DNA of 64,000 nucleotides, taken from assembly GCF_003334765.1 (NCBI RefSeq), contig NZ_QOWT01000001.1; one strand, 5' to 3'. Source of the DNA: Escherichia coli. GTDB lineage: Bacteria > Pseudomonadota > Gammaproteobacteria > Enterobacterales > Enterobacteriaceae. The notes beneath the pieces are model-generated. The model had not been told where the DNA came from and did no database searches. It was given only the letters and a program-made list of their open reading frames with translations. A program made the position numbers and the translations under genes. Positions 11,742 to 16,049 of the stretch are shown in pieces; position 1 is the stretch's first letter, and every line of letters begins with the position of its first letter.

Positions 11742-11817
11742 TGGCTCCTCTGACTGGACTCGAACCAGTGACATACGGATTAACAGTCCGCCGTTCTACC
11801 GACTGAACTACAGAGGA
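11742..11817 (-). tRNA. asnV: tRNA-Asn (GUU)
   Basis: 76-nt reverse complement of the tRNA-Asn sequence ending CCA; identical to the three other copies. Confidence 0.95.
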
Positions 11818-11835
11818 ATCGTGTGAACGGGGCGC

Positions 11836-11864
11836 ATATTAATGGCAGTGCATGGTGATGTCAA
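11836..11864 (-). promoter_or_regulatory. Sigma70 promoter of asnV (TTGACA, 17 bp spacer, TAATAT)
   Basis: Hexamers read on the minus strand just upstream of the tRNA. Confidence 0.5.
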
Positions 11865-12142
11865 AGGGTGAAATGCATTTTTTTGTTTGTTTGCTGTCAA
11901 TTTCAACAAAGTGATGAGATTTCAATCTTATTGGTAATGAACCATCGTGGTGCATACCCTCCTTTTATAGGGCAGGGGAACGCGACTGCTGGTGAAAAGA
12001 GCCAATGACGAATCTATCATAATCTCTTATTTGACAGTTGGTTAGCTTGTACATCAACGCCAAAATAAAACTGGCAAGCATCTTGCAATCTGGTTGTAAG
12101 TAATGGCGGCACTTGGGCCGATTCTCAAAAACCGGAGGCAAC

Positions 12143-13060
12143 ATGAACTTCAGACGCCTGAAATACTTCGTAAAAATTGTAGATATTGGTAGCCTGACTC
12201 AGGCTGCTGAAGTATTGCATATCGCACAACCAGCGCTCAGCCAGCAGGTTGCCACACTCGAAGGTGAGTTAAATCAACAACTTTTGATTCGCACAAAACG
12301 GGGCGTTACGCCAACAGACGCCGGAAAAATTCTCTATACCCATGCGCGGGCCATTTTACGTCAGTGTGAGCAGGCCCAACTGGCGGTGCATAACGTTGGT
12401 CAGGCATTATCGGGGCAAGTCTCGATTGGCTTTGCGCCAGGAACCGCTGCGTCATCCATCACCATGCCCTTATTACAGGCGGTTCGCGCTGAATTCCCGG
12501 AGGTCGTTATCTATCTTCATGAAAATAGCGGTGCAGTGCTTAACGAAAAACTGATAAATCACCAACTCGATATGGCGGTGATTTATGAGCATTCCCCTGT
12601 GGCTGGTGTATCCAGTCAGGCTTTGCTGAAAGAAGATCTTTTCCTGGTAGGAACTCAAGATTGCCCGGGGCAAAGCGTTGATGTTAATGCTATTGCACAA
12701 ATGAACCTTTTTCTCCCCAGTGATTACAGCGCTGTTAGACTTCGTGTTGATGAGGCGTTTTCCCTACGGCGGCTCACGGCAAAAGTCATTGGTGAAATTG
12801 AGTCTATTGCTACGCTTACCGCAGCGATTGCCAGCGGCATGGGCGTTGCAGTATTACCCGAATCGGCCGCGCGTTCGTTATGTGGCGCAGTAAATGGGTG
12901 GATGTCACGCATTACCACGCCTTCCATGAGTCTCTCTTTGTCATTAAATTTACCCGCCAGAGCGAACTTATCGCCACAGGCACAGGCAGTGAAAGAGTTG
13001 TTAATGTCAGTGATTAGTTCTCCAGTGATGGAAAAAAGGCAGTGGCAATTGGTGAGCTAA
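12143..13060 (+). CDS. nac: Nitrogen assimilation regulatory protein Nac (LysR family)
   Basis: 305 aa from MNFRRLKYF...; LysR HTH; synteny. Confidence 0.9.
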   Translation: MNFRRLKYFVKIVDIGSLTQAAEVLHIAQPALSQQVATLEGELNQQLLIRTKRGVTPTDAGKILYTHARAILRQCEQAQLAVHNVGQALSGQVSIGFAPGTAASSITMPLLQAVRAEFPEVVIYLHENSGAVLNEKLINHQLDMAVIYEHSPVAGVSSQALLKEDLFLVGTQDCPGQSVDVNAIAQMNLFLPSDYSAVRLRVDEAFSLRRLTAKVIGEIESIATLTAAIASGMGVAVLPESAARSLCGAVNGWMSRITTPSMSLSLSLNLPARANLSPQAQAVKELLMSVISSPVMEKRQWQLVS

Positions 13061-13161
13061 GCGTTATATCGGGATGGAATAAGATGCGGGTTTTTATTAT
13101 TTGTTATGCCGGGCGTTAGACTTTAACAATAACGGGATATCTGAACTGCCCGGAGTTTACC

Positions 13162-14112
13162 GTGAATTTCCAACAACTAAAGATAATCCGCGAAGCTGCA
13201 CGTCAGGATTACAACCTGACAGAGGTTGCGAATATGCTTTTTACCTCACAGTCAGGCGTCAGCCGTCATATTCGGGAACTGGAGGATGAACTTGGCATCG
13301 AAATATTTGTTCGACGAGGTAAGCGACTGCTGGGCATGACTGAACCGGGCAAAGCATTACTGGTCATTGCAGAACGTATTCTCAATGAAGCCAGTAATGT
13401 TCGTCGGCTTGCAGACCTGTTTACCAACGATACGTCTGGCGTTCTCACTATTGCAACGACGCATACTCAGGCACGTTATAGCTTGCCAGAGGTCATTAAA
13501 GCTTTTCGCGAACTTTTCCCGGAGGTTCGGCTCGAGCTAATCCAGGGGACGCCACAGGAAATTGCGACGTTGTTGCATAATGGTGAAGCTGATATTGGTA
13601 TCGCCAGCGAGCGTTTGAGTAATGACCCGCAGCTCGTCGCCTTCCCGTGGTTTCGTTGGCACCATAGTTTGCTTGTTCCACACGATCATCCCTTGACGCA
13701 AATTACACCATTGACGCTGGAATCAATAGCGAAGTGGCCGTTAATCACTTACCGACAGGGGATTACGGGGCGCTCACGTATTGATGACGCATTTGCCCGC
13801 AAAGGTTTGCTGGCAGATATTATATTAAGTGCGCAGGATTCTGATGTCATTAAAACCTATGTTGCTCTTGGGCTTGGGATCGGATTAGTTGCCGAACAAT
13901 CCAGCGGTGAACAAGAGGAAAAGAATTTAATCCGCCTGGATACGCGGCATCTTTTCGATGCTAATACTGTCTGGTTGGGACTGAAGCGAGGACAACTTCA
14001 GCGTAACTATGTCTGGCGCTTTCTGGAACTTTGTAATGCAGGACTTTCAGTTGAGGATATCAAGCGGCAGGTGATGGAAAACAGTGAAGAGGAAATTGAT
14101 TATCAGATATAG
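13162..14112 (+). CDS. cbl: LysR-family regulator Cbl (sulfonate-sulfur utilisation)
   Basis: 316 aa, MNFQQLKIIREAARQDYNLTEVANMLFTSQSGVSRHI...; synteny with nac. Confidence 0.9.
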   Translation: MNFQQLKIIREAARQDYNLTEVANMLFTSQSGVSRHIRELEDELGIEIFVRRGKRLLGMTEPGKALLVIAERILNEASNVRRLADLFTNDTSGVLTIATTHTQARYSLPEVIKAFRELFPEVRLELIQGTPQEIATLLHNGEADIGIASERLSNDPQLVAFPWFRWHHSLLVPHDHPLTQITPLTLESIAKWPLITYRQGITGRSRIDDAFARKGLLADIILSAQDSDVIKTYVALGLGIGLVAEQSSGEQEEKNLIRLDTRHLFDANTVWLGLKRGQLQRNYVWRFLELCNAGLSVEDIKRQVMENSEEEIDYQI

Positions 14113-14113
14113 C

Positions 14114-14149: not shown

Positions 14150-14225
14150 TGGCTCCTCTGACTGGACTCGAACCAGTGACATACGGATTAACAGTCCGCC
14201 GTTCTACCGACTGAACTACAGAGGA
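14150..14225 (-). tRNA. asnU: tRNA-Asn (GUU)
   Basis: Identical 76-nt tRNA-Asn sequence. Confidence 0.95.
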
Positions 14226-14385
14226 ATCGCTGTTGAGGCACATCTTAACGGCGAAAAATCTTTTGTCAAACCCGATTTTTAATTTTCCCAACTGTTTGCC
14301 GTTTCTATCAACAGTTTGTTGCATTTGCAGACAATTTGATGGCGAAAATCTTTGCAGCTTTGCTGATTCTCCCTCATTATTTGAA

Positions 14386-15873
14386 ATGTGGTTTCACTTT
14401 CTGCAATTAAGGTCGGCTTTGAATATCTCCTCTGCTTTACGCCAGGTTGTTCACGGCACTCGCTGGCACGCTAAACGCAAGAGCTACAAAGTGTTGTTCT
14501 GGCGCGAGATAACCCCGCTTGCTGTTCCTATCTTCATGGAGAATGCCTGTGTCCTGTTGATGGGGGTTCTGAGCACTTTTCTGGTCAGCTGGCTGGGAAA
14601 AGATGCGATGGCCGGCGTGGGATTGGCGGACAGCTTCAATATGGTCATTATGGCTTTTTTTGCAGCTATCGATCTTGGTACTACTGTCGTTGTAGCATTT
14701 AGTCTCGGTAAGCGAGATCGACGACGAGCGAGGGTGGCGACGCGGCAGTCATTGGTGATCATGACGTTGTTTGCCGTACTGTTGGCAACGCTAATTCATC
14801 ATTTTGGCGAACAAATTATTGATTTCGTCGCGGGTGATGCCACGACAGACGTTAAAGCACTGGCGTTGACTTATCTGGAGCTGACCGTACTCAGTTATCC
14901 AGCAGCTGCCATCACTCTTATTGGTAGCGGGGCACTTCGTGGTGCAGGGAATACGAAAATACCGCTACTGATTAACGGTAGCCTGAATATTCTTAATATT
15001 ATTATTAGCGGCATATTGATTTACGGCCTTTTCTCCTGGCCGGGACTGGGATTTGTCGGGGCTGGGTTGGGTTTAACCATTTCTCGTTATATTGGCGCAG
15101 TTGCAATTTTGTGGGTGCTGGCGATTGGTTTTAATCCTGCGCTAAGGATTTCGTTAAAGAGCTATTTTAAACCGCTGAATTTTAGCATTATCTGGGAAGT
15201 CATGGGGATTGGTATTCCAGCGAGTGTCGAATCAGTGTTATTTACCAGTGGTCGGTTATTAACCCAAATGTTCGTTGCCGGGATGGGGACCAGCGTTATT
15301 GCCGGAAATTTTATCGCGTTCTCAATTGCGGCTCTTATCAACTTACCCGGAAGTGCGCTCGGTTCTGCTTCTACGATCATTACAGGCCGAAGGTTGGGGG
15401 TAGGGCAGATAGCGCAAGCAGAGATTCAGTTGCGGCATGTGTTCTGGCTGTCCACTCTTGGATTAACGGCCATCGCCTGGCTAACGGCTCCCTTTGCCGG
15501 GGTTATGGCATCGTTTTACACCCAGGATCCACAGGTTAAACACGTCGTTGTGATTCTGATTTGGCTAAATGCTTTATTTATGCCTATTTGGTCCGCCTCA
15601 TGGGTGCTACCCGCTGGATTTAAAGGTGCTCGTGATGCCCGTTACGCCATGTGGGTTTCGATGTTGAGCATGTGGGGTTGTCGGGTTGTAGTCGGTTATG
15701 TGCTGGGAATCATGCTTGGCTGGGGTGTGGTTGGCGTCTGGATGGGAATGTTTGCCGACTGGGCTGTGCGGGCCGTGCTGTTTTACTGGCGAATGGTTAC
15801 TGGACGTTGGCTATGGAAATACCCTCGATCCGAGCCGCAAAAGTGTGAAAAAAAGCCAGTTGTGTCGGAATAA
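14386..15873 (+). CDS. yeeO: MATE-family efflux transporter YeeO
   Basis: Polytopic membrane protein; start placed at internal Met (MWFHFLQ...) because the ORF-track start at 14233 would overlap the asnU promoter region; start uncertain. Confidence 0.8.
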   Translation: MWFHFLQLRSALNISSALRQVVHGTRWHAKRKSYKVLFWREITPLAVPIFMENACVLLMGVLSTFLVSWLGKDAMAGVGLADSFNMVIMAFFAAIDLGTTVVVAFSLGKRDRRRARVATRQSLVIMTLFAVLLATLIHHFGEQIIDFVAGDATTDVKALALTYLELTVLSYPAAAITLIGSGALRGAGNTKIPLLINGSLNILNIIISGILIYGLFSWPGLGFVGAGLGLTISRYIGAVAILWVLAIGFNPALRISLKSYFKPLNFSIIWEVMGIGIPASVESVLFTSGRLLTQMFVAGMGTSVIAGNFIAFSIAALINLPGSALGSASTIITGRRLGVGQIAQAEIQLRHVFWLSTLGLTAIAWLTAPFAGVMASFYTQDPQVKHVVVILIWLNALFMPIWSASWVLPAGFKGARDARYAMWVSMLSMWGCRVVVGYVLGIMLGWGVVGVWMGMFADWAVRAVLFYWRMVTGRWLWKYPRSEPQKCEKKPVVSE

Positions 15874-15926
15874 ACGACAAAATGCAGATTATTTCAGCAA
15901 ACGATTTCAAATTTAAAAAACAGGCT

Positions 15927-15955
15927 TTGACATTGTGGGTGGGCATCGCTAATAT
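15927..15955 (+). promoter_or_regulatory. Sigma70 promoter of asnW (TTGACA, 17 bp spacer, TAATAT)
   Basis: Hexamers read directly upstream of the tRNA. Confidence 0.55.
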
Positions 15956-15973
15956 TCGCCTCGTTCTCACGAT

Positions 15974-16049
15974 TCCTCTGTAGTTCAGTCGGTAGAACGG
16001 CGGACTGTTAATCCGTATGTCACTGGTTCGAGTCCAGTCAGAGGAGCCA
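15974..16049 (+). tRNA. asnW: tRNA-Asn (GUU)
   Basis: TCCTCTGTAGTTCAGTCGGTAGAACGGCGGACTGTTAATCCGTATGTCACTGGTTCGAGTCCAGTCAGAGGAGCCA. Confidence 0.95.

Follow-up and report, generated by a model that had tools for sequence, protein, structure and literature searches.

The segment at positions 11742 to 16049 of the 64,000-nucleotide Escherichia coli sequence analyzed here (the window) is, almost certainly, the standard asnV-asnU-asnW cluster of the species: three of the four tRNA-Asn(GUU) genes of E. coli lie here as empty attB sites, the fourth, asnT, holds a High Pathogenicity Island (HPI, the yersiniabactin island) that would no longer be mobile, and the copies together constitute potential substrates for recombination between repeats. 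ARAGORN called four tRNA-Asn(GUU) genes in the window, each forming a cloverleaf with a GUU anticodon (Table 1). The four are identical at 76/76 positions, and asnW is the sole copy in the opposite orientation. The 17-mer CCAGTCAGAGGAGCCAA, which consists of the final 16 nucleotides of the tRNA gene and 1 nucleotide downstream, occurs exactly four times in the window, once at each tRNA 3' end, and no fifth copy was found there with up to three mismatches allowed (chance expectation, 0.12 matches). The initial annotation had claimed this identity of asnV, asnU, and asnW with asnT, including the 17-mer, and had conceded that differences in the att core might have been overlooked; we looked for such differences and found all four cores to be identical. 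Its placement of the copies within 44 kb of the occupied asnT likewise agrees with the 44.2 kb separating asnV from asnT, and its gene names are correct by synteny with K-12. The core is also identical to the published 17-bp attO of the Enterobacteriaceae asn-tRNA islands (Paauw 2010, PMC2801613). It would be the crossover core for the P4-family tyrosine integrases of islands that target asn genes, among them the HPI together with conjugative relatives, the colibactin (pks) island, and further ones.

Table 1. Coordinates of the tRNA-Asn genes, the resident island, and associated features in the window
Feature	Position	Strand	Remarks
asnV, tRNA-Asn(GUU), empty attB	11742-11817	-	Core 11741-11757 (-); ARAGORN; synteny ldtA-asnV-nac as in K-12
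asnU, tRNA-Asn(GUU), empty attB	14150-14225	-	Core 14149-14165 (-); ARAGORN; synteny cbl-asnU-yeeO
asnW, tRNA-Asn(GUU), empty attB	15974-16049	+	Core 16034-16050 (+); ARAGORN; synteny yeeO-asnW-yeeN
asnT, tRNA-Asn(GUU), occupied site, attL junction with HPI	55867-55942	-	Core 55866-55882 (-); ARAGORN
Promoter-like site of asnV, TTGACA-17-TAATAT	11836-11864	-	Consensus match only
Promoter-like site of asnU, TTGACA-16-TAAGAT	14242-14269	-	Consensus match only
Promoter-like site of asnW, TTGACA-17-TAATAT	15927-15955	+	Consensus match only
Terminator-like hairpin directly 3' of asnV, native chromosomal flank	11708-11735	-	
Terminator-like hairpin 3' of asnW, native chromosomal flank	16111-16141	+	
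Core genes between tRNA copies (nac 12143-13060, cbl 13162-14112, yeeO 14386-15873)	12143-15873	+	Block inverted in pks-positive B2 strains
Repeat arm around asnV	11738-11841		104-nt inverted repeat (97%) with 15950-16053 (asnW); direct repeat, 84 nt at 100% identity, with 14146-14229 (asnU)
Repeat arm around asnU	14145-14229		Inverted repeat, 85 nt at 100% identity, with 15970-16054 (asnW); yeeO between arms
Repeat arm around asnW	15950-16054		Partner in both inverted repeats
HPI body (fyuA, ybtE, ybtT, ybtU, irp1, irp2, ybtA, ybtP, ybtQ, ybtX, ybtS, int)	25420-55865		GC 55-62%; lacks 17-bp repeat at fyuA end
HPI P4-family tyrosine integrase, 420-codon open frame, first codon ATA, not ATG	54443-55705	-	NF007246 integrase domain, E = 2e-67; tblastn

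The K-12 cluster asnT/asnW/asnU/asnV (b1977, b1984, b1986, and b1989) comprises the same four genes in the same relative orientations and shares the neighbors mtfA, yeeN, yeeO, cbl, nac, and ldtA, with the window running in the reverse of K-12 order. Alignment of positions 7919 to 21952 with K-12 gave a single colinear 14-kb match at 97.7% identity, which implies that nothing is inserted at asnV, asnU, or asnW. Three asn-associated integrases of the P4 type, used as tblastn queries against the whole window, matched only at 54446 to 55705, leaving no integrase remnant at these sites; nor were any partial att copies or scars detected there with up to three mismatches. The 3' flanks of all three genes are native and terminator bearing; relative to the published attO flanks (PMC2801613), asnV and asnU show the chromosomal type (an ATT...AAAAGCC hairpin), whereas asnT shows the island type (TTTTCTGTTTTC...). 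A 95-aa open reading frame beside asnW (16160 to 16447) was considered as an island trace and rejected, as it has no family match and its region is colinear with K-12. The claim that no integrase or foreign DNA adjoins asnV, asnU, or asnW is therefore upheld by both the tblastn search and the K-12 alignment, with the qualification that IS-rich foreign DNA is present at positions 1 to 8300, on the far side of cobUST-ldtA and next to no tRNA gene. Judged by their sequence, the three are intact, unrecombined attB-type sites.

At asnT, the integrase lies directly 3' of the tRNA gene and is followed by complete ybt-irp-fyuA genes; the 3' flank is island-side sequence, TTTTCTGTTTTCTTGCATCC, leading into the integrase; this flank is unlike that of asnT in K-12 and similar to the one published for the island side. 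A 30-kb HPI occupies the interval between asnT and a truncated yeeJ, whereas in K-12 yeeJ is intact and asnT is empty. We found no difference of substance from the E. coli-type HPI reported to be fixed at asnT (PMC8209727; bioRxiv 10.1101/2025.09.17.676721): that of the window likewise adjoins asnT-mtfA-serU, has a complete ybt-fyuA complement, and is missing the right-hand direct repeat. The mobile form, as in Yersinia and ICE, is flanked by 17-bp attL and attR copies; in the window only attL is present, and no attR direct repeat was found at the far end of the island with up to three mismatches over the window. The true right edge is somewhere within the AT-rich spacer at 24770 to 25419, and since aligning the K-12 asnT 3' flank at low stringency with positions 24000 to 25500 revealed nothing beyond yeeJ, it cannot be placed to the base. 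A genome of 99.96% identity has this gene annotated as an integrase and shares its ATA start codon. The missing attR and the ATA codon suggest that the resident HPI is a degenerate E. coli form that could not excise and reintegrate and is probably unable by itself to move into the empty sites. The HPI is integrated at asnT, asnV, asnU, and asnW are unrecombined attB sites with native flanks, and these three are empty most likely because the strain has no other asn-targeting island and its HPI is degenerate.

For the comparison of the asn cluster across strains that the initial annotation had proposed, we used 5,426 complete genomes of E. coli. The empty junctions are contiguous at asnV in 4,664, at asnU in 5,180, and at asnW in 4,972 of the 5,426 genomes, and the HPI integrase-asnT-mtfA junction is present in 2,446/5,426. 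A separate count of 2,399 genomes was rejected as a tally of this configuration, as HPI-negative genomes may also pass its 80% threshold. Two-piece matches of ~3.5 kb in two of the empty-junction searches were considered as inversions and set aside because they were strand correlated, with the sense of the correlation reversed between the two; they are probably an artifact of the joining rule, seemingly adding a neighboring tRNA copy.

As a precise past excision would leave no trace, we describe the three sites as empty rather than as never occupied, and it is conceivable, although unlikely, that one or more of them once held an island (e.g., a pks-like one) and was emptied by precise, scarless integrase-mediated excision. 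Islands are found at asnV, asnU, and asnW in other strains, and decayed fragments of clbO, clbP, and clbQ at positions 1764 to 2267 indicate that a colibactin-type element was once in the chromosomal neighborhood. However, 9.5 kb separate this relic from asnV; it lies past the core genes cobUST-ldtA, beside IS fragments and away from any tRNA end, and the sites themselves have neither partial att copies nor integrase remnants, their flanks being colinear with K-12. A genome search with positions 1 to 2400 recovered IS fragments only, with no genome containing the entire stretch, and a literature search on a clb relic adjoining ibrA returned nothing relevant. We give far less weight to the proposal that the three copies are poor targets despite the shared core, and hence not true alternative sites, because their 3' flanks are unlike that of asnT. 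The four 3' flanks do diverge past the core and a following ATT, but at least 21 complete genomes have the HPI with its integrase at asnV and an empty asnT, which largely refutes this explanation; in addition, the pks island, which carries an integrase of 80% identity, occupies asnW in Nissle 1917 and asnV in UTI89, and use of asnU has been published. An assembly artifact, in which collapsed or copied repeats would make the copies identical, has nothing in its favor and is scarcely credible, given that the unique flanks differ between copies and that the same four genes and flanks are found in K-12 and nearly all of the 5,426 genomes.

The initial annotation had further claimed that multiple identical targets in opposite orientations create potential for inversion or deletion by homologous recombination between tRNA copies. 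Because the tRNA copies and their immediate flanks form repeats of 84 to 104 nucleotides (Table 1), they are predicted substrates for homologous recombination, which may give rise to the inversions and the deletion-type junction seen in other E. coli genomes. In support of the claim, searches of the 5,426 genomes with recombinant junctions of the inversion and deletion types, built from the window sequence, recovered an asnV x asnW inversion in 265 (the pks-positive Nissle type, mapped in Nissle 1917), a yeeO flip between asnU and asnW in 32 (mapped in Santai; the sequence backgrounds of the 32 are 98.5 to 99.0% identical to the query), a recombinant ldtA-asn-yeeO junction in 35, an asnT x asnW inversion in 1 (mapped in ET5), and a further recombinant junction in 1 (mapped in SE15). 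The window, which is one consensus sequence, has the majority K-12-like order and contains no recombinant junction.

Both the empty asn sites and recombination between the copies are already published (Auvray 2021; Wami 2021; mSphere 2019; Paauw 2010). [quoted passage not shown] Spontaneous asnW/asnV inversion was detected in cultures of UTI89 (mSphere 2019, PMC6458436), an experimental detection in another strain; the recombination substrates there are the same inverted repeats as those of the window. In Enterobacter hormaechei, islands occur in tandem (PMC2801613), whereas in the window one site is filled. The parts of the literature on the asn cluster available to us make no mention of a flip of yeeO alone. 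We consider it quite improbable that the cluster of this strain is continuously flipping, with minor subpopulations in which yeeO alone (asnU x asnW) or the nac-cbl-asnU-yeeO block (asnV x asnW) is inverted; if it were, the yeeO flip could be recurrent and might affect yeeO expression or later island capture.

The window represents the commonest HPI-positive, pks-negative state and in itself adds nothing new, and counting junctions across the 5,426 complete genomes quantifies facts published from smaller collections. It is at the asn tRNA cluster that E. coli acquires the yersiniabactin and colibactin islands, both of which are medically important, and which of its sites are filled and how the block between them is oriented record the history of a lineage.

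Several E. coli chromosomes share the 18 kb between positions 8000 and 26000 of the window at 100% identity. The annotation of one such chromosome, together with that of K-12 MG1655, yields a gene map that runs cobU-cobS-cobT-ldtA, asnV, nac-cbl, asnU, yeeO, and asnW and continues after asnW with yeeN-amn-shiA-GT9, a yeeJ remnant, the High Pathogenicity Island (HPI; fyuA ... ybtS-int), asnT, and mtfA-serU. This is the K-12 order reversed, with the HPI added at asnT, and the names that the initial annotation had given to the four asn genes are correct. One gene in this map is degraded, and another in its surroundings probably is. 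The inverse autotransporter adhesin gene yeeJ (21962 to 24769, minus strand) has lost ~3.7 kb internally relative to K-12 and carries frameshifts; the same remnant (98.9% identity) adjoins the HPI in Nissle 1917. A TonB-dependent receptor gene homologous to K-12 yoeA (4495 to 6668, minus strand) appears as two ORFs (392 and 322 aa) and is probably disrupted; its counterpart is intact in Nissle 1917 (716 aa) and split by an IS3 element in GPEC874, an annotated near-identical comparator.

Of the five tRNA genes that ARAGORN detected in the window, four encode tRNA-Asn(GUU). An alignment including 20-nt flanks showed these four to be identical at 76/76 positions, with the upstream 20 nt alike in three copies and the downstream flanks differing. 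The core 17-mer CCAGTCAGAGGAGCCAA spans the final 16 nt of the tRNA-Asn gene and the base that follows it. The window contains exactly four copies, one per tRNA-Asn 3' end, and no further match was found even at three mismatches (chance expectation, 0.12 matches). The proposed identity of the copies, attachment core included, is thereby borne out; the repeats around them measure 84 and 85 nt (both 100% identical) and 104 nt (97%). Elsewhere in the E. coli genome collection, eleven to fourteen tRNA-Asn matches lie on plasmid-labelled records, one of which (NZ_CP196293.1; 5,969 bp) carries a tRNA-Asn with ~100 nt of matching flank; these records may represent island circles after excision or fragments of an assembly.

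tRNA-Asn genes of the window (ARAGORN)
Feature	Coordinates	Strand
tRNA-Asn(GUU), asnV	11742-11817	-
tRNA-Asn(GUU), asnU	14150-14225	-
tRNA-Asn(GUU), asnW	15974-16049	+
tRNA-Asn(GUU), asnT	55867-55942	-

The region from 7919 to 21952 aligns to K-12 as a single colinear match of 14,037 bp (97.7%), so asnV, asnU, and asnW are free of insertions. TBLASTN searches with the HPI integrase, the integrase of the colibactin (pks) island, and a third asn-associated integrase matched only 54446 to 55705, the rest of the window giving E > 0.3. Both results agree with the earlier reading that these three copies lack an adjacent integrase or foreign DNA. A consensus-like promoter precedes each of these three copies; the native 3' flanks of asnV and asnW contain a terminator-like hairpin, and in the flank of asnU a T-run follows a comparable inverted repeat.

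At asnT, the 3' flank (TTTTCTGTTTTCTTGCATCC...) differs from that of K-12 and resembles the island-side flank listed by Paauw et al. 2010 (PMC2801613). Next to it come a P4-type integrase of 420 codons and the full complement of ybt-irp-fyuA genes, in a block of 55 to 62% GC. The fyuA end of the island lacks a second copy of the core when the window is scanned with up to three mismatches, in agreement with the truncated, immobile E. coli HPI, fixed at asnT with attR lost, that is described in PMC8209727 and bioRxiv 10.1101/2025.09.17.676721. The first integrase codon (55703 to 55705, minus strand) is ATA (Ile) rather than the expected ATG, the frame being otherwise open; the sequence, ATA included, is identical in GPEC874, where it is annotated as a full-length integrase. 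Because the second core copy is missing and the first codon is ATA, we infer from sequence that this HPI is unable to excise and reintegrate, and such immobility would explain its absence from the three free asn sites. Apart from one SNP at 37865 and 12 additional bases in irp1 (32107 to 32118), positions 30001 to 64000 are identical to GPEC874.

The initial annotation had also proposed that identical copies create potential for inversion or deletion. Native and synthetic 2-kb junctions were searched against 5,426 complete E. coli genomes, counting genomes with one contiguous match of ≥80%, and both inversion and deletion-type junctions are present.

Junctions of the asn cluster among 5,426 complete E. 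coli genomes
Junction	Configuration	Genomes
ldtA-asnV-nac	native, asnV empty	4,664
cbl-asnU-yeeO	native, asnU empty	5,180
yeeO-asnW-yeeN	native, asnW empty	4,972
int-asnT-mtfA	HPI at asnT	2,446
yeeN-asn-nac	asnV x asnW inversion	265
ldtA-asn-yeeO 3' end	asnV x asnW inversion without pks	1 (SE15)
cbl-asn-yeeO 3' end	asnU x asnW flip of yeeO	32
yeeN-asn-mtfA	asnT x asnW inversion	1 (ET5)
ldtA-asn-yeeO 5' end	asnV x asnU deletion-type junction	35

Individual genomes illustrate these configurations. Nissle 1917 has its nac-cbl-asnU-yeeO block in inverted orientation, with the pks island placed between asnW and ldtA. SE15 (locus L009, 7943 to 13395) alone shows this inversion without pks; a second, partial copy of yeeO (its 3' end) sits next to asnW there, so the event involved more than a plain exchange between two tRNA genes. 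A check of O157:H16 Santai confirmed the yeeO flip: the gene sits on the opposite strand between both tRNAs. In CREC-544 (L008, 6952 to 11266) ldtA is joined directly to asn-yeeO, with nac and cbl not found within 7 kb on either side; the next asn copy is followed by a pseudogenized integrase and an island, and the pdu/pocR genes are kept left of cobU. In ET5 (L005, 1 to 19075) the yeeJ-yeeN block is inverted, and a full-length yeeJ abuts an AlpA/H-NS-type island.

Decayed colibactin-island fragments (1764 to 2267, plus strand) lie directly left of ibrA (2263 to 3495), adjoining IS66/IS3-type transposase debris. They comprise parts of clbO (aa 710 to 765), clbP (aa 426 to 504, with in-frame stops), and clbQ (aa 1 to 43), with 83 to 87% DNA and 73 to 87% protein identity to the pks island of Nissle 1917, a strain with different genes at this position. 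This relic may mark a flu-proximal, integrase-less pks locus, since Auvray 2021 (PMC8209727) places the integrase-less pks of phylogroups A/B1 near flu with flanking IS66, and flu lies in the same cobU-side region in K-12.

Auvray 2021 (PMC8209727) describes an E. coli HPI that is immobile at asnT and gives 4,309 bp for the inverted asnW-asnU-asnV region, the span from 11742 to 16049; Wami 2021 (PMC8461471) describes the same asn-region inversion; mSphere 2019 (PMC6458436) reports PCR detection of the asnW/asnV inversion in UTI89 cultures and an inverted CFT073; and Paauw 2010 (PMC2801613) tabulates the same 17-bp core. Given this agreement, the observation and its interpretation are already known. 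The yeeO-only flip and the asnT x asnW inversion, not found in the consulted passages of these papers, are small variations on the same mechanism. The finding is real, correctly read, and ordinary: with 2,446 HPI-at-asnT genomes against 265 inverted ones, the window probably represents the most frequent HPI-positive, pks-negative arrangement of this much-studied locus. In one combined query, at least 21 genomes had an empty asnT and the HPI, integrase included, at asnV (verified in strain 675SK2), and UTI89 carried the pks integrase at asnV. The empty asn copies are therefore real alternative integration targets, and the repeats around them recombine in nature.
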